From Klebsiella phage 4LV2017, in the sequence record KY271398.1: a DNA stretch of 33,540 nt. One strand, 5' to 3'. Below the pieces are notes generated by a model that was not told the DNA's origin, made no database searches, and worked only from the letters and a program-made list of their open reading frames with translations. Shown in pieces: positions 102 to 33,540 of the stretch (positions within the stretch are counted from its first letter, which is position 1; each line of letters begins with the position of its first letter). A program made the position numbers and the translations under genes.

Positions 102-1154
102 TTACGGGGTAATGCCAACCGCTGCCGCCACTTTGTCGCCACTTGGCAGCGTTGCCAGAGGATTGAAACGGAGCGCCGTTTCCAGATGATCCGGTGCCAG
201 ATGAGCGTAACGCATAGTCATTTTTATATCGTGATGTCCGAGGATTTTTTGCAAAGCAAGGATATTTCCACCCGACATCATGAAATGCGCAGCAAACGTA
301 TGGCGCAGAACGTGTGTCAGTTGACCGCGAGGGAGGACGATAGACGTTTTTTCCATCACGGATAAAAATTGAAAATAGCAGTCTGTGAAGAAATTGAACC
401 CATCAAGCGCCATGATCTCTTCGTAAAGCTCTTTACTGATAGGGATGCTTCTGTTTTTCTTCCCCTTCGTTCTTACAAAGGTAATTCGGTATTTGGTCAC
501 CTGTGAACGAGTAAGATTTACGGCTTCTCGCCAGCGTGCGCCTGTGCTTAAGCATATCTTAACTACCAGTGCCAGAATTGGGTCATGACGTTTGCAATCA
601 GCCAGTAATTCAACAATCTGCTCATGGGTAAGCCATGCCATCTCTTTTTCTGCGATGGTGAATTTTCGCATGTTCTCCAGTGGGTTCGGATACGACCATT
701 CGCCCAGGCGGGATAGTTCGCTAAAAACACTACTTAGATAGCTTTGCTCCAGGTTAATGGTGACCGGGCTTGCTCCTTTCTTCCATTTCTCGCTGAAGTA
801 GATCTCTCCTGTCAGGCGTTTATCTCGATAGTGGGCAAACATTTTAGAGGTGAGATCGGTTGCAAGGGGATTGCCCAGAGCGTCAACTATCAACAGCAAT
901 TTGTCATAGACATGCTGCCCAGCTGTCAGAGATTTACCATGTAGTTTGAACCATAGCTCAACCACGTCTTTCAGTGTTCGACGATCCACTGATTCACCCA
1001 GCCAGGGCTTTGCCTCGGTTTCTTCCATCGTGTGACGCTCAAAAGCCAGAGCTTCACCTTTGGTGGCGAATTGTTTACGCACACGACGTCCACTACGTCC
1101 CGCGGGGTAACATTCGCATAGCCATTTTCCTGTGGTGAGTTTTCGTACTGCCAT
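102..1154 (-). CDS. int: Tyrosine site-specific integrase, P2 Int family (350 aa)
   Basis: The N-terminus MAVRKLTTGKW...GRSGRRVRKQFATKGEALAFE parallels P2 Int. The C-terminal catalytic region has R...HxLRHTFA...Y (LRHTFAAHFMMSGGNILALQKILGHHDIKMTMRYAHL). It lies adjacent to the att core. Confidence 0.93.
   Translation of the reverse strand: MAVRKLTTGKWLCECYPAGRSGRRVRKQFATKGEALAFERHTMEETEAKPWLGESVDRRTLKDVVELWFKLHGKSLTAGQHVYDKLLLIVDALGNPLATDLTSKMFAHYRDKRLTGEIYFSEKWKKGASPVTINLEQSYLSSVFSELSRLGEWSYPNPLENMRKFTIAEKEMAWLTHEQIVELLADCKRHDPILALVVKICLSTGARWREAVNLTRSQVTKYRITFVRTKGKKNRSIPISKELYEEIMALDGFNFFTDCYFQFLSVMEKTSIVLPRGQLTHVLRHTFAAHFMMSGGNILALQKILGHHDIKMTMRYAHLAPDHLETALRFNPLATLPSGDKVAAAVGITP
120..141. 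repeat. 22-bp repeat cgctgccgccaYtttgtcgcca with a second copy at 33350-33371 (one mismatch); candidate arm-type site flanking attP
   Basis: Seen directly. The left copy lies within the last codons of int. The right copy starts immediately after the ogr stop. Both are in the same orientation, so they would flank the core at roughly 70-100 bp on either side in the circular phage. Confidence 0.4.
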
Positions 1155-1184
1155 AAAAAATGCCCTCCAGTGGAGAGCATTTTT
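1155..1184. terminator. Imperfect hairpin tgccctcc-agt-ggagagca flanked by an A-run and a T-run; bidirectional terminator-like element directly upstream of the int start
   Basis: Seen directly at 1155-1184. On the minus strand it is followed by T6 and then the int ATG. Confidence 0.45.
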
Positions 1185-1243
1185 ACTGTGTGTATAACCA
1201 GTGTCAATGTATATGAATTAAGATTCATACATTGAGGTTAATT

Positions 1244-1849
1244 TTATCTTTCTACTTCCCAGCGTAGAGATTGCATTAACATAGCATAAATATTGAACAG
1301 GAAAGTTTTTAAAGTTAATACAAGGAACACTGCACTGCTTCCTACGAGTATATATAGTATTTGAACTCCAACAACTTTAGTGCAATGAGAAAACATTAAG
1401 GCTCTGAGTAATTTTGTAGCCAATCCATTTTCTTGCCCGAAAAGAAGGACTAAAAGATAGATAACAGACCAAAATATGAAATATATAAATACTCTCATAA
1501 ATACGCCATAAACATATTTTAAGTAACTTATCCCGTATAATGGATGCTTATACTCCATTAATGAAAGGAAAAGTTCAGGTTTATTTATGGTTGCAAATAT
1601 TGTAAATCCAGTAATTAAAAAACCTAATGTTGTTGTAGTGAATCCGAATACTAGAGGTGTCCATTGTCTAATAGATGAAATTAACTCTGGTGATGAAGAT
1701 AGACAAAAAGCATTAATAGATAATAATATCACTAACAACAATGTGAAATAAAAGTCAAATGAATTGATTTTTATTTTTTTAGTTAATTTGTAAACATCAT
1801 GCAAAGATCGCTCTTTGGTCAGATCTTCTGGGTTGAATGTATATTTCAT
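1244..1849 (-). CDS. Hypothetical integral membrane protein, about 4 predicted TM helices (201 aa); accessory (moron) gene
   Basis: Four hydrophobic stretches of about 20 aa (FYFTLLLVILLSINAFCL, LVFGFTTTTLGFLITGFTIFATI, VFMRVFIYFIFWSVIYLLVLLFG, VVGVQILYILVGSSAVFLVLTL). Very AT-rich. Its start overlaps the stop of the upstream gene (TAG-t-ATG). Confidence 0.7.
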   Translation of the reverse strand: MKYTFNPEDLTKERSLHDVYKLTKKIKINSFDFYFTLLLVILLSINAFCLSSSPELISSIRQWTPLVFGFTTTTLGFLITGFTIFATINKPELFLSLMEYKHPLYGISYLKYVYGVFMRVFIYFIFWSVIYLLVLLFGQENGLATKLLRALMFSHCTKVVGVQILYILVGSSAVFLVLTLKTFLFNIYAMLMQSLRWEVER

Positions 1850-1850
1850 A

Positions 1851-2900
1851 CTATAGCCACCTAGAAATTATTGATGTTAACTTGGAAAAAATTTTAGTAT
1901 AATCTTCACGTTCTGGAATAATAATATTTCCTTCATCCTTTAATTCTGTGAATGCAGAATACGCCTCTTGAGCAGCTCTTTCCAAATCAGAACTAAGTTG
2001 TGGCCTTGATGCTTTTAGAGTAAAACTATCATTATTCCCTGATAGCCTTGCTCCGTGTTCATCTTTACCACTTATAATTACTTTAGAGTTGGCCATTCGG
2101 GTTGCACTTGTTGTTTTTTGAATGACGGCCTCAGAATTTAAACCATCTTCATTTTGATTTGTGTATACTAATTGAGCTTTACTACTATTAAGTTCTTCTT
2201 TTTCTTGTTCAATTTTCCTCCAGAAGCCATCAAGAGATATATTTTCACTATTTGTTGGCAATAACTCAATTGATAATTTATTAACAACAGAAAAGAGTTC
2301 AACAAAATTGCTCAATGATCTTGGGTCTGTTAAGGGGGTAACCCGTAATTTGGGGGTTCCTAGTTTACGATAAATATCTTTTTTATACAGTCGATCAATG
2401 TATGATTTTTTCTTTCTAATTCTTATATTTTTTTTTACTTCGTAATCCACAAAAGAATTATATCGCTGTGCAAGGCAATACTTGCTAGTATTTTCAAATT
2501 CTTCTAGGGTAGGGGCTCCAGAAACCTCTTTGCAAAGCATTAATCTGTGCTCATTAAGCATAAGAATAAAAATAGAGCTGGGGTGACTTTCTAGCGTCCT
2601 GTGATCTCGAATTAATTGACCATCTCGAAATATTTGATCTCGTTTAAATATGGTCTTTTTTATAATGCGGCCACACAATGCAATTGTTGGAACTATAGGA
2701 CCAATAAAATCTGAATCTGTAGTATCTAACGTAATAATTTTTGTGTCAGTAAAGAAATATTCTGTATCTTTAAATTTTCTAACGTATTTTTGTGCGAAAA
2801 ATGAAGGAAAAACAATGCAATCAAAGGCATCTAAGAGAACTTTGTCCTCTCCAAAATTTAAGGTATAGTTTGCAAATTCAATAGTTTTCGTAAAGCTCAT
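1851..2900 (-). CDS. Hypothetical protein (349 aa), no recognisable domain; accessory gene translationally coupled to the repressor and the membrane protein
   Basis: Long ORF in an AT-rich island. Its start lies 2 nt after the repressor stop and its stop lies 1 nt before the next start. The C-terminal half is charged and low-complexity. Confidence 0.7.
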   Translation of the reverse strand: MSFTKTIEFANYTLNFGEDKVLLDAFDCIVFPSFFAQKYVRKFKDTEYFFTDTKIITLDTTDSDFIGPIVPTIALCGRIIKKTIFKRDQIFRDGQLIRDHRTLESHPSSIFILMLNEHRLMLCKEVSGAPTLEEFENTSKYCLAQRYNSFVDYEVKKNIRIRKKKSYIDRLYKKDIYRKLGTPKLRVTPLTDPRSLSNFVELFSVVNKLSIELLPTNSENISLDGFWRKIEQEKEELNSSKAQLVYTNQNEDGLNSEAVIQKTTSATRMANSKVIISGKDEHGARLSGNNDSFTLKASRPQLSSDLERAAQEAYSAFTELKDEGNIIIPEREDYTKIFSKLTSIISRWL

Positions 2901-2902
2901 TG

Positions 2903-3844
2903 TTAAACCCTTTTTCTAATTATTCCTTTAACTTTATTATTAAATTCTAAATCTTTTTTATCGCATTCAAAGCTATATTTTGTGTTTTCAACGCGGATGC
3001 GATTGTTTGGAAGTTTAAATATGTCTCTAAAAGTAAATTCTCCGTTAATAGATACTAACCATAGACCATCGCTAAGATACTCCTCTTTGCTAATGATGTA
3101 TGAATCATTTGCGGAATTAACTATATAGGGATGTTTTAAATTTTTAGGTAAAATTTCGCTCGAAACGATTAATTCTCTTTGATCAGTAAGTTTGCCGTCA
3201 CGTAGATCATAGCAGTCTAATGTAAGCAACCCACTTAGCTTTGTTTGATTGGAATACCCCTTACCAAAAGATAACCACTCGAGAGACACTCCTGTTTCTA
3301 AACAGCATTGGATGATCCAGTCTGCCGGAAAAATGTCTCGCATGTATCGTGTAGCTAATGTGCTTTTTGAGATACCAAGGTGATCGGCTAAGGCTTGGCG
3401 CGTTTTGTAACCGTAAGCCTTAACAATTCGCTCTATTGCTGCTTTACCCCCTCGAGTGAACTCCATGTGGTTTTCATTATCGAACTTTATCGTGGGGGTG
3501 TGAACTTCATTGCAAAATTCATCTGCAGACTGTTTTTCAGCATGCCGTTCTGGCGAAGGAACTGGCACTCCTTCTTCAGCATCTAAACCAAATGCTAACC
3601 ATTCGATTGATGCGCCAGTTTCCATTGAACATATAACAACCCAATCAGCAGGGAAGGTATCGCGTGCATATCTGTTAGCCATTGTACTTTGTGAAATACC
3701 AAGGTGGTTACAGAATGCTTGGCGTGATTTGAAACCATAGGCCATGAGTATTCTCTCAATGACTTTTTGCCCTCCTCGATTCTGCATGACCATGGCTTTC
3801 AGATGATCTTCAATATGGCGAAATGTGATTTTATTAGTTGACAT
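2903..3844 (-). CDS. cI: Immunity repressor, phage 186 CI family, with two tandem N-terminal CI-type HTH domains plus a C-terminal domain (313 aa)
   Basis: There is an internal repeat: GGQKVIERILMAYGFKSRQAFCNHLGISQSTMANRYARDTFPADWVVICSMETGASIEWLAFG matches GGKAAIERIVKAYGYKTRQALADHLGISKSTLATRYMRDIFPADWIIQCCLETGVSLEWLSFG. Both match the 186 CI N-terminal motif (..AYGF...LA.HL.IS.S.L.NRY.R....D.....ETG..L.WL..G). The gene is divergent from the apl-like gene across an 88-bp control region. Confidence 0.8.
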   Translation of the reverse strand: MSTNKITFRHIEDHLKAMVMQNRGGQKVIERILMAYGFKSRQAFCNHLGISQSTMANRYARDTFPADWVVICSMETGASIEWLAFGLDAEEGVPVPSPERHAEKQSADEFCNEVHTPTIKFDNENHMEFTRGGKAAIERIVKAYGYKTRQALADHLGISKSTLATRYMRDIFPADWIIQCCLETGVSLEWLSFGKGYSNQTKLSGLLTLDCYDLRDGKLTDQRELIVSSEILPKNLKHPYIVNSANDSYIISKEEYLSDGLWLVSINGEFTFRDIFKLPNNRIRVENTKYSFECDKKDLEFNNKVKGIIRKRV

Positions 3845-3932: not shown

Positions 3933-4154
3933 ATGACCCCTAACATTTCAATAACTTTGAATACGCCGCACGTCACAATTGAGCGTTATAGCGAACTTAC
4001 TGGTCTTTCTATCGACACAATCAACGATATGCTGGCTGATGGTCGCATCCCTCGTCATCGCCTTCGGAAAGACAAGAAAAGAGAAAAGGTAATGATCAAC
4101 CTTGCTGCTCTTACCGTTGATGCACTTACTGATTGCAATGTTGTATTCAACTAG
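3933..4154 (+). CDS. apl: Apl/Cox-like small HTH regulator and excisionase (73 aa)
   Basis: It is the first gene of the early rightward operon. A small basic protein with a central HTH-like segment ([28 protein letters not shown]). RBS aggag at 3918-3922. Confidence 0.7.
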
Positions 4155-4186
4155 TTCCATTTTGGGATACATCAGGGGTGTCGACT

Positions 4187-4696
4187 ATGTTTGATTACCA
4201 AGTTTCCAAACATCCACATTTTGATGAAGCCTGTCGTGCATTCGCGCTGCGCCACAACCTGGTGCAACTGGCAGAACGTGCTGGCATGAATGTGCAGATT
4301 CTGCGGAACAAGCTGAACCCAGCTCAACCTCATTTATTAACCGCACCAGAAATCTGGCTGCTTACCGATCTGACTGAAGATTCAACGCTGGTAGATGGTT
4401 TTCTGGCACAGATTCATTGTCTGCCATGTGTACCGATTAATGAGGTAGCAAAAGAGAAACTGCCACATTACGTCATGAGTGCAACCGCAGAGATCGGGCG
4501 TGTTGCTGCAGGTGCGGTATCTGGCGATGTAAAAACCAGTGCAGGTCGTCGTGATGCTATCAGCAGCATTAACTCTGTAACACGACTGATGGCGCTGGCG
4601 GCTGTTTCATTGCAGGCCCGTTTACAGGCTAATCCTGCGATGGCGAGTGCAGTTGATACCGTGACTGGCCTCGGTGCTTCATTCGGTTTGCTGTGA
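4187..4696 (+). CDS. cII: CII-like phage regulatory protein (186 CII family, 169 aa from ATG 4187)
   Basis: [45 protein letters not shown]... is typical of P2/186-family CII/CP76 proteins. It lies directly after apl. RBS aggggtg. The upstream in-frame extension from 4133 is unlikely to be coding. Confidence 0.75.
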
Positions 4697-10867: not shown

Positions 10868-11030
10868 AGCCTAGCTGTGCCCTTAGCAGGAAAGTACATT
10901 CAATATGTTACTTTCTAGTGGTTGGTGTTTAGCCAACTCGTATGGATTGCTTGGTATCTCGACACAAGTTAGCCTTGTGTCATTTATAGACACCAGGCTA
11001 ACTTGTGTCTCGGGAACTCTTGTATGGGCA
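10868..11030 (+). ncRNA. msr-msd: Putative retron non-coding RNA (msr-msd). It has a conserved-looking GTGCCCTTAGCAGG start, an msr hairpin at 10921-10937, and a long msd stem-loop at 10961-11009
   Basis: Seen directly: a 14-bp perfect inverted repeat (gacacaagttagcc / ggctaacttgtgtc) with a nested inner stem (tgtgtc/gacacc). The long six-frame ORF runs straight through this palindrome, which is implausible for coding sequence. The motif GCCCTTAGCaGG resembles the Ec86 msr 5' region (CACCCTTAGCGAGAGG) that contains the branching G. It lies immediately upstream of the NDT-like effector and the retron RT. The exact ends and the a1/a2 repeats are not resolved. Confidence 0.45.
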
Positions 11031-11039
11031 TTAATTGTT

Positions 11040-11957
11040 ATGTGGTTTAAACATCCTAGATATTTACGAGCAAAAGAAAATTTTATTTCAAGTTTTTTTC
11101 CAAGTAACTTGAATTCTTTTAATTATATTCTGCCAAAAGTATTATTTATTTGTGGCGGTGATGAGACTTATTGTTCAAATAGAGGGATGCTGGAAAAATA
11201 TATTGCCAAGCATCATAAAGAATTTGTTACTTTTCGAGCAGAATTAGCATGGGAAGTAATTAGCAATTTAGGAACTCATAGTAATGTGAATGCGTTATCA
11301 CTAGAAGAATGGCTTGCGGATTTTTCTGATGTGGTAATTATTCTCGTAGAGAGTTATGGCACTGTAGCTGAATTAGGCGCATTTTCATTAAGTCCTGTTT
11401 TACGTAAAAAACTTCTTCCTATATTAGATAAAAAGTTTGAAACTCATAAGTCATTTATCAATACAGGGCCCGTAAAATGGGTTGATAGTGAATCCAAATT
11501 TGGCCCTACAATCTATACCGAATTTGAGACAATTTTAACGTGTATGCCTAAAATAAATGAAAGGCTAAATAGGAAAGTTCAATCAAACATAACTAATGCA
11601 AATTCAATAGGTGATTACAAGTATTCACCAAAAATTTTTTTATTTTTTGTGCTCGTTGTTATATCTTCTTTAGGGCCAATAACAATTCCTGAAATTATTA
11701 ATATCACAGGTAGGCTGATTAATTATAAAATTAATAAAAATATTTCATTTGTTGTTTCTATTGGAGTTGCCCTTGGGATTTTTAAGGAAAGTCGATTTGC
11801 GGGCGTGACTCATTATTCATGTGTCGATTATATTAAATTTTTTAATCATGAAAAGATGAAAGATTTAGTTGAAAGTATTCAACGAAGTAGAGCTAGATCA
11901 TTATCCGATTTAATAATGATATCCAAATTCAAAGCAGAATTAGAAAGGATCATGTGA
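11040..11957 (+). CDS. Retron effector: N-terminal nucleoside 2-deoxyribosyltransferase-like domain with a hydrophobic (about 2 TM) C-terminal region (305 aa from ATG 11040; start uncertain)
   Basis: An NDT-like beta1 motif (KVLFICGGDE) and a catalytic-Glu motif (VVIILVESYGTVAELGAFS, compare DSGTAFEIGYA in NDTs). C-terminal hydrophobic segments IFLFFVLVVISSLGPITIPEII and ISFVVSIGVALGIF. The stop lies 1 nt before the RT start. The upstream 45 codons of the tracked ORF cover the msd palindrome and are taken as non-coding. Confidence 0.65.
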   Translation: MWFKHPRYLRAKENFISSFFPSNLNSFNYILPKVLFICGGDETYCSNRGMLEKYIAKHHKEFVTFRAELAWEVISNLGTHSNVNALSLEEWLADFSDVVIILVESYGTVAELGAFSLSPVLRKKLLPILDKKFETHKSFINTGPVKWVDSESKFGPTIYTEFETILTCMPKINERLNRKVQSNITNANSIGDYKYSPKIFLFFVLVVISSLGPITIPEIINITGRLINYKINKNISFVVSIGVALGIFKESRFAGVTHYSCVDYIKFFNHEKMKDLVESIQRSRARSLSDLIMISKFKAELERIM

Positions 11958-11958
11958 T

Positions 11959-12888
11959 ATGTTAATTGAGTATCTAGCTAAAATTTTACTGTTAGAAGCT
12001 GATTTTATATTAAAAGTTGCAAATGATGCTAACTCGCATTATGGTAAATTTTCTGTACCTAAAAAAGGCGGTGGGACAAGAATCGTCTATCAGCCCTCTA
12101 AAGAATTAAAAGTTTTGCAGAGATTACTGCATGATAATATTCTGTCGAAATTGCCGATTCATCCAAATGCTGTAGCATATCAGCAGGGTTCATCAGTGTT
12201 CAGACATGCAAGCATTCACAAAGCTAAACGTTTTATGCTTAAGATGGACTTTGAAGGTTTTTTTGATTCAATTAAGGAAAGTGATGTTGAGAGATTTATA
12301 AACGATAAAAAGCATTTCTTCAGTGATGATTGGTCAAAGGATGATACTGATTTGCTGGTGAAAATAGTATGCTTTAACGGGAGACTGACTATGGGTGCTG
12401 TTAGTTCCCCTGTAGTAAGCAATGCTATATGCTATGAATTAGATCATATATTGAATGAATTTTGTCTTTCAAAAGGTGTAATATATACACGCTATGCTGA
12501 TGATATGTACTTCTCAACAAACGAAGAAAATGTATTGAAGCAAATACCACCTTTTTTACGCTCGAATTTAAAAACTTTAAAATACCCATCAAAACTATGG
12601 ATTAATAGAAAAAAGACACTGCATATGTCAAAGAAAAATAAAATGATGGTTACGGGTGTGACTTTGACAACAGATGGTGGAGTATCCTTAGGGAGAGATA
12701 AAAAAAGGATGGTTAAATCGCTTATTTTTAAATGGGAGGCTCTTGATGAGAAGAAAAGGTTATTTCTCCAAGGATATTTATCGTATTGCAAAAGTGTTGA
12801 GCCATTATTTATTAATAGGCTTTGTGCGAAATATTCATCAGAGCTGATTGATGAAATCCAGAGATATCAACCTGTAGTATCAGAATAA
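11959..12888 (+). CDS. ret: Retron-type reverse transcriptase (309 aa)
   Basis: RT motifs are all present: motif 1 PKKGGGTRIVYQP, motif 2 LKVLQRLL, the retron-specific NAVAYQQGSSVFRHASIH, motif A LKMDFEGFFDSI, motif B MGAVSSPVVSNAI, motif C YTRYADDMYFS, and the retron VTG motif (MMVTGVTLTTDG). Confidence 0.9.
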   Translation: MLIEYLAKILLLEADFILKVANDANSHYGKFSVPKKGGGTRIVYQPSKELKVLQRLLHDNILSKLPIHPNAVAYQQGSSVFRHASIHKAKRFMLKMDFEGFFDSIKESDVERFINDKKHFFSDDWSKDDTDLLVKIVCFNGRLTMGAVSSPVVSNAICYELDHILNEFCLSKGVIYTRYADDMYFSTNEENVLKQIPPFLRSNLKTLKYPSKLWINRKKTLHMSKKNKMMVTGVTLTTDGGVSLGRDKKRMVKSLIFKWEALDEKKRLFLQGYLSYCKSVEPLFINRLCAKYSSELIDEIQRYQPVVSE

Positions 12889-33421: not shown

Positions 33422-33440
33422 CAGGCAACAAAAAACCCAT
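33422..33440. repeat. attR: attR core: second copy of the 19-bp direct repeat caggcaacaaaaaacccat
   Basis: Identical to 9-27. Confidence 0.75.
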
Positions 33441-33475
33441 CAACCTTGAACCGAAGTGGCGGGGTTGATGGGCTC
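33428..33475 (-). terminator. Host-side rho-independent terminator read on the minus strand (cccatcaacc...ggttgatggg + TTTTTTG); its U-tract overlaps the att core
   Basis: Seen directly: cccatcaacc at 33436-33445 pairs with ggttgatggg at 33465-33474. On the minus strand the stem is followed by tttttt. Confidence 0.5.
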
Positions 33476-33540
33476 CACAAAATGGGGACATCAAAGAAAA
33501 GCAGTGGCATTACTTATGACTGATGCCCTGAGAAAAAGTT

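Follow-up and report, generated by a model that had tools for sequence, protein, structure and literature searches.

Klebsiella phage 4LV2017 (sequence record KY271398.1) carries two genes, here called A and B, between the tyrosine integrase gene int and the repressor gene cI, and the question raised by this locus is what these genes do for the prophage. We analyzed the whole stretch of 33,540 nucleotides, hereafter the window. A previous sequence-only reading of this DNA had noticed the pair at this position and had guessed that it encodes a sensor and a membrane effector of an undescribed defence module. After analyzing the sequence, the predicted structures and the homologous loci, we consider it likely that A and B, which lie in the immunity region of a P2/186-like prophage, form a two-component module of the Rex type that excludes phages by abortive infection. 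This conclusion is based on the order and tight spacing of cI, A and B, the fold of A, the four-helix structure of B, the strict synteny of the pair, and the defence and mobile contexts in which it occurs. The earlier proposal of a sensor plus a membrane effector is thus still the best reading, and both the feature and its functional class were correctly recognized. However, its novelty was overrated: A has a predicted RexA/RdgC fold, the layout matches that of lambda cI-rexA-rexB, and several Rex-like systems without sequence relationship are known (CarolAnn, Sbash, Butters, P. putida RexABpp and V. cholerae Sucellos). The pair looks like a very diverged counterpart of lambda RexA/RexB and therefore a probable defence of known type.

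Layout of the locus and predicted folds of its products

The features that carry the argument are the following.

1244-1849, minus strand: gene B, encoding a 201-residue membrane protein with four helices (open reading frame, hydrophobic segments and AlphaFold2 model), the proposed RexB-like effector
1851-2900, minus strand: gene A, encoding a 349-residue cytoplasmic protein with a predicted RexA/RdgC fold, the proposed infection sensor and DNA-binding activator
1857-1862, minus strand: Shine-Dalgarno-like AGGTGG for gene B, read within the 3′ end of gene A
2903-3844, minus strand: cI, encoding the 313-residue CI repressor (Pfam), first gene of the presumed lysogenic operon
2908-2912, minus strand: Shine-Dalgarno-like AAGGG for gene A, read within the 3′ end of cI

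The locus is the immunity region of a P2/186-like prophage. In Pfam, CI matched PF07022 over two stretches (E = 4e-57) and PF16452 (E = 1.7e-19); its domains are two tandem Phage_CI_repr helix-turn-helix domains and one CI C-terminal domain. Related prophages L019, L025 and L026 (L numbers denote compared loci) have CI proteins of 189-203 residues with a single helix-turn-helix, whereas L023 has two separate CI genes. The three genes cI, A and B are co-oriented on the minus strand, and the junctions read exactly as previously described: the cI stop codon TAA (2905-2903) is followed by "ca" and the ATG of A at 2900, leaving a gap of 2 nucleotides, and the stop codon TAG of A (1853-1851) is followed by "t" and the ATG of B at 1849, leaving a gap of 1. 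This arrangement would place both genes for expression with cI, as had been anticipated. A and B thus share a defining feature of the Rex class, as they lie co-oriented downstream of an immunity repressor and are predicted to be expressed in the lysogen. The strong AT richness noted earlier was also borne out, since the guanine-cytosine (GC) content of the two genes is 32%, compared with 51% in the remainder of the window. The AT-rich zone reaches into the 3′ third of cI, with a minimum of 28% GC at 2851-3150.

Protein A contains no hydrophobic membrane segment and is basic (isoelectric point 8.6), like RexA. It has no significant match in Pfam, NCBIfam or PADLOC, and its one partial match, phrog_10040 (E = 3e-10), is a PHROG family of unknown function. 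Protein B likewise has no significant match in Pfam, NCBIfam or PADLOC and nothing useful in PHROG. A Cas6_C match in the family scans of A and B was below threshold (E = 0.056) and was dismissed as chance. A profile search of 1.84 billion cluster representatives retrieved 702 members of the A family at E ≤ 1e-3 and 350 at E ≤ 1e-30, nearly all of them 320-350 residues long. Arg or Lys is conserved at positions 41, 78, 81, 87 and 119 of A, and H118, E125 and N217 are strongly conserved polar residues.

The AlphaFold2 model of A, built from an 88-sequence alignment, is very confident (predicted local distance difference test score, pLDDT, 94.3; predicted template-modelling score, pTM, 0.91). 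A Foldseek search of the PDB with this model gave one significant target (E = 2.8e-5, probability 1.00), the lambda RexA crystal structure 8TWQ. The whole-chain template-modelling (TM) scores are low (0.28/0.34), as is to be expected when a protein consists of two domains that are known to change their relative orientation, so the match concerns the domains and not the global conformation. At the level of the model, A has the RexA/RdgC two-domain fold that characterizes Rex-type sensors.

Protein B has four hydrophobic, helical segments at about residues 30-50, 53-88, 109-137 and 155-200, and its AlphaFold2 model consists of four long helices (pLDDT 81), in agreement with the four-pass membrane protein that had been predicted. 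Its homologues align over their full length and share the motifs LT-E-SL-D-Y (N-terminal), GFLI-GFTIF-T, LKY, K-F-FN-Y and LRWE (C-terminal), and the conserved residues include E13, S15, G76-F77, K111, K181, N186 and R196-W197. The N-terminus is rich in Lys/Arg, with 7 such residues among the first 30, which suggests an N-in topology; the central loop and the C-terminus would then be cytoplasmic. Topology and position are the entire basis on which we propose that B is RexB-like.

Relation to lambda RexA/RexB and other Rex-like systems

No abortive-infection system has been known for longer than the lambda cI-rexA-rexB array, for which the trigger and the mechanism are not yet settled. RexA/RexB (PF15969/PF15968; PDB 8TWQ) resembles A-B in lying downstream of cI on the same strand, in an operon expressed in the lysogen, and in consisting of a cytoplasmic protein followed by a protein with four transmembrane segments, with similar isoelectric points. 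The proteins differ in length (279 residues for RexA and 349 for A; 144 for RexB and 201 for B), and the host phages differ too, being lambdoid in one case and of the P2/186 type in the other. There is no detectable sequence similarity between the two pairs, and both A and B failed the sequence-family tests.

CarolAnn genes 45-44-43 offer a second parallel to cI-A-B, with a repressor, a 370-residue protein and a 178-residue four-pass protein encoded with overlapping stops and starts. CarolAnn gp44/gp43 and Sbash gp30/gp31 are Rex-like systems of actinophages; that of CarolAnn is expressed in the lysogen and is defensive by experiment (PMC6426606, PMC6426596). RexB (144 residues) and CarolAnn gp43 (178 residues) are also basic and have several hydrophobic segments, and both are called four-pass membrane proteins in the source papers. 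The PADLOC RexA and RexB models match lambda but match neither CarolAnn nor A-B.

A shared domain label has been reported for some of these proteins. DUF4747 was described in RexA, Sbash gp30 and CarolAnn gp44 from weak HHpred matches (PMC6426596, PMC6426606), and some copies of A carry the RefSeq label "DUF4747 family protein" (for example, WP_040038354.1). Precomputed tables give PF15931 for 5 of 25 A-family clusters. However, hmmscan gave no PF15931 match for 88 A-family members at E ≤ 0.01 or for the 21 closest at E ≤ 10, nor did it reproduce the DUF4747 label on CarolAnn gp44.

Two further systems were compared by their published descriptions only. Sucellos (SclA/SclB) is a two-gene cassette of the Vibrio cholerae superintegron that resembles RexAB in structure but is not picked up by the Rex Pfam models; defence needs both genes, SclB is a predicted pore-former, and the system is known from integrons of Vibrio and is frequent in prophages of enterobacteria (bioRxiv 10.1101/2024.07.02.601686). 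Its genes in V. cholerae are probably VCA0367-0368. This description fits A-B, whose family likewise has members in Vibrionaceae and in enterobacterial prophages. Among the A homologues at ≥ 38% identity, there was none from V. cholerae or Salmonella, so any relationship to Sucellos would be distant. RexABpp of Pseudomonas putida prophage P1 (PP_5643/PP_5644) lies downstream of a CI-like repressor, with the four-pass RexBpp as the effector (PMC12894663). RexApp reaches RexA by HHpred (98% probability), whereas the A family does not by hhalign, and the BLAST relatives of RexABpp are reported from pseudomonads only. One paper counts five Rex-like systems described as of January 2026.

Other candidates fit less well. 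RdgC (PDB 2OWL) is encoded by a stand-alone housekeeping gene without a membrane partner, whereas A is AT-rich cargo of mobile elements paired with a transmembrane gene; A has no Pfam RdgC match and has only the fold in common with that family. Kiwa (four-pass KwaA plus the DUF4868 protein KwaB), which likewise combines a four-pass with a cytoplasmic protein, was rejected as well, as there was no PADLOC or Pfam match and the gene order is opposite, with the membrane protein of Kiwa encoded first.

Several observations speak against a Rex assignment. Structurally, RdgC scores nearly as high as RexA against A, and a defence role therefore cannot be read from the fold by itself; membrane proteins with four helices are a generic class, and a search of BFVD with the B model gave no significant structural match (best E = 0.38). 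In the top ten rows of that search, the highest TM-scores (0.40/0.46, E = 1.7) belong to a 165-residue Sbash protein whose identity as gp31 is unconfirmed. By sequence, A matches neither PF15969 nor the PADLOC RexA model, both of which are matched by the lambda RexA control, and B matches neither PF15968 nor the PADLOC RexB model. Profile comparison with hhalign gave a probability of 3.3% for the A family (88 sequences) against the RexA family (29 sequences), 0.5% for the B family against RexB, 0.1% for A against CarolAnn gp44 and 0.04% for B against gp43. Additionally, lambda RexA, CarolAnn gp44 and A fall into three different PHROGs, and tblastn with A and the family consensus found no homologue in 50,697 deposited phage genomes. 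The hhalign comparison of A with lambda RexA as a single sequence was also non-significant, and PDB sequence searches with 21- and 88-sequence A profiles returned only noise.

Genomic contexts and probable exchange of the pair

The A-B pair is strictly syntenic across Proteobacteria. In all 12 complete loci outside the window that were closely inspected, the gap between A and the B homologue behind it is -14 to +8 nucleotides, and these B homologues have 201-228 residues and four hydrophobic segments. Besides Silvania, the inspected loci represent Vibrionaceae, Alteromonadales, Oceanospirillales and Betaproteobacteria, and they come from the following taxa.

Silvania, Salinivibrio, Photobacterium, Vibrio, Pseudidiomarina and Colwelliaceae
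Marinomonas, Halioglobus, Alcanivorax, Denitromonas and a metagenome-assembled genome of Rhodocyclales

GC content was measured at 13 loci, and in 12 of them the pair is poorer in GC than the flanking DNA. A type I specificity subunit is encoded near 3 of 13 loci, and in L022 the pair lies directly downstream of the type I restriction-modification genes hsdMSR. Transposases flank some of the copies outside prophages, and the neighbours also include some housekeeping genes. The sequence-only reading had named a wide spread outside mobile elements as a point against defence. The pair is indeed widespread outside prophages, but there it sits in mobile or defence-island contexts, so its wide spread does not count against defence.

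CII, Apl and then CI-A-B-Int follow one another in 17 of 25 IMG/VR viral contigs, and in 3 more up to the contig end; the CI-A-B-Int order is also present in Silvania (L006) and Enterobacter cloacae (L019). A four-pass membrane gene lies immediately 3′ of A in the IMG/VR loci too, as is characteristic of the Rex-type class. In two IMG/VR contigs (L035, L036), which carry a 73% allele, the order is CI-Int-A-B, and the pair lies between int and the attachment (att) end. Related prophages therefore carry the cassette in either of two positions. Among 5,426 complete Escherichia coli genomes, 11 carry the window allele and 13 carry an allele of 42% identity. An identical prophage segment, comprising the early region with A 100% identical, is present on a Klebsiella pneumoniae IncF plasmid (L004; NZ_CP083056, 140503-157549). 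This plasmid is conjugative, with a recombinase, ISKpn19, qnrS1 and blaTEM-1 immediately beyond int, and B has no annotation in its record.

The alleles fall into three classes, of 99%, about 75% and about 42% identity to the window. In L042, L044, L045 and L048, Int and CII are 98-100% and 94-99% identical to those of the window, respectively, whereas CI, A and B are each only about 40-42% identical, so these three genes have diverged or been exchanged together as one unit. The earlier picture of an island inserted next to cI does not fit this pattern, because the repressor diverges together with the pair while int and cII stay at 94-100%. Instead, the pattern suggests that the genes for immunity and exclusion are swapped together as a single cassette, in a manner reminiscent of the lambda imm region.

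The view of the pair as accessory cargo at a variable int-cI junction is supported. Other E. coli genomes with a prophage at this attachment site have different cargo at the junction, always downstream of and co-oriented with cI:

a 324-residue protein without a family match, and P-loop NTPases of 443-505 residues
a three-gene set including an ASCH-domain protein, and a small YdcA-like gene
coordinates of the cargo: 3135-4109 in L002, 2641-4158 in L023, 5489-7693 in L024 and 5135-6662 in L026

These other uncharacterised genes may be further defence candidates. P2-like phages are reported to have a minor hotspot for defence genes in the interval between int and the primase gene (PMC13586616).

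The remaining features of the junction are as follows.

102-1154, minus strand: int, encoding a tyrosine integrase (Pfam Int_N and Phage_integrase), the boundary of the int-cI junction
1155-1184, minus strand: terminator-like hairpin with a T6 run (sequence and RNA fold), abutting the int ATG
1198-1237, minus strand: second hairpin, AT-rich, directly 3′ of the gene B stop (minimum free energy structure)
3933-4154, divergent from cI: Apl/Cox-like gene
4133-4696, divergent from cI: CII (CP76) gene

The hairpin at 1155-1184, which had been described as terminator-like, is real: the RNA of 1140-1250 folds at -33.5 kcal/mol (z = -6.4 compared with shuffles), and the T6 run leads straight into the int ATG. 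It was not among the sites given by the consensus terminator scan, probably because its A/T tracts lengthen the stem. The int Shine-Dalgarno sequence GGAGG (1168-1164) lies inside the 3′ arm, and in the lysogen the hairpin could serve both to end the transcript of cI, A and B and to mask int from translation. Promoter-like sites in the AT-rich DNA are as frequent as expected by chance (13 found, 12.3 expected), so an internal promoter for B of the lambda pLIT kind cannot be assessed from the sequence.

Outside the immunity region, the remaining window aligns to E. coli P2-family prophages integrated beside rcdA. The host small RNA gene RybB lies at the right end of the window (33427-33505, minus strand; Rfam RF00110, 103 bits). 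With RybB at the right end and rcdA to the left of the related E. coli prophages, the element is apparently integrated between rcdA and rybB. The hotspot between gpA and gpQ (10905-12888, plus strand) contains a retron St85-family system, according to the RefSeq annotation of the best-matching E. coli prophage:

10905-11957, plus strand: 350-residue effector
11959-12888, plus strand: 309-residue reverse transcriptase

Together with the A-B pair, this retron means that the prophage carries at least two defence candidates.

Proposed mechanism and competing explanations

By analogy with the characterized systems, we provide a putative mechanism for exclusion by A-B. In the lysogen, cI, A and B would be transcribed together from the lysogenic promoter, and transcription would mostly end at the hairpin before int. 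Protein A would act as a dimeric, non-specific DNA-binding clamp, as suggested by lambda RexA, CarolAnn gp44 and P. putida RexApp; its isoelectric point of 8.6 and its conserved basic residues would be in keeping with such a role. On superinfection, A would sense a product of the incoming phage, which may be one of its proteins or an intermediate of replication or recombination, and would then activate B. B may oligomerise into a pore or channel that collapses the membrane potential and depletes ATP, so that the cell is arrested and the infection aborts. Such a sensor-to-membrane-effector scheme is supported for lambda, CarolAnn, Sbash and P. putida RexABpp, and Sucellos needs both of its genes (PMC12894663, bioRxiv 10.1101/2024.07.02.601686). 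The closeness of A to RdgC and the effect of RexA on the lysis-lysogeny decision leave room for a second role, and A may also act in switch or recombination control.

The roles of the two proteins might be inverted, with A as a toxic or antiviral effector that B tethers or sequesters until infection. The gp30/gp31 system of mycobacteriophage Butters (PMC7542560, via PMC12894663) has the same architecture and is reported to work in this way, its cytoplasmic protein being the effector. The conserved residues H118, E125 and N217 of A could form an active site for such a function. Even so, we regard this inverted logic as unlikely for A-B, on a par with a role outside defence, in which A would tune the lysis-lysogeny switch or recombination of the prophage and B would be a membrane anchor or regulator. 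Against the latter role, the pair is also found with no repressor or prophage nearby, beside restriction-modification genes and transposases, where there is no phage switch to tune. Moreover, lambda RexA acts both on the switch and in defence, so the two roles are compatible.

Sie and Imm-type proteins are small polytopic membrane proteins, and B, as a predicted inner-membrane protein from a prophage, might similarly block the entry of incoming phage DNA, with A as an accessory. However, such envelope exclusion systems normally need no 349-residue cytoplasmic partner with a DNA-clamp fold, and the strict A-B synteny argues for a joint mechanism, which makes this explanation highly improbable. 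Just as little can be said for a module of the addiction or toxin-antitoxin kind that keeps the prophage or mobile element stable and has no role against phages: it would suit a membrane toxin with a cytoplasmic partner and the location on mobile elements, including the IncF plasmid copy, but the Pfam, NCBIfam, PADLOC and PHROG scans gave no similarity to toxin-antitoxin families, the A proteins are far larger than typical antitoxins, and the RexA fold points elsewhere.

We therefore retain the Rex-type exclusion module as the preferred reading of the locus. A broader proposal is distinctly more tentative, and we would sooner doubt than accept it in full. It holds that A-B represents a large clade of the Rex type, comprising 700 or more clusters at 50% identity, that has no sequence relationship to lambda RexAB, RexABpp, Sucellos or the actinophage systems and whose sensor stands structurally halfway between RdgC and RexA. 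In 186-like phages, this clade would be inherited or swapped with cI as an "immunity plus exclusion" cassette, and it would have been missed by PADLOC-DB v2.0.0. The pair itself is not recognized by PADLOC-DB v2.0.0, and defence inventories that rely on this release will therefore miss it.

Rex was the first abortive-infection system to be discovered. The A-B family is large, is present in prophages of E. coli and Klebsiella, and has a very confidently modelled sensor, which, if it is of the Rex type, would make it a tractable new model that could draw on E. coli genetics and on the tools available for P2 and 186. It would extend Rex-type defence to P2-like phages and would suggest that temperate phages have repeatedly combined a repressor and a Rex-like module in their immunity regions.

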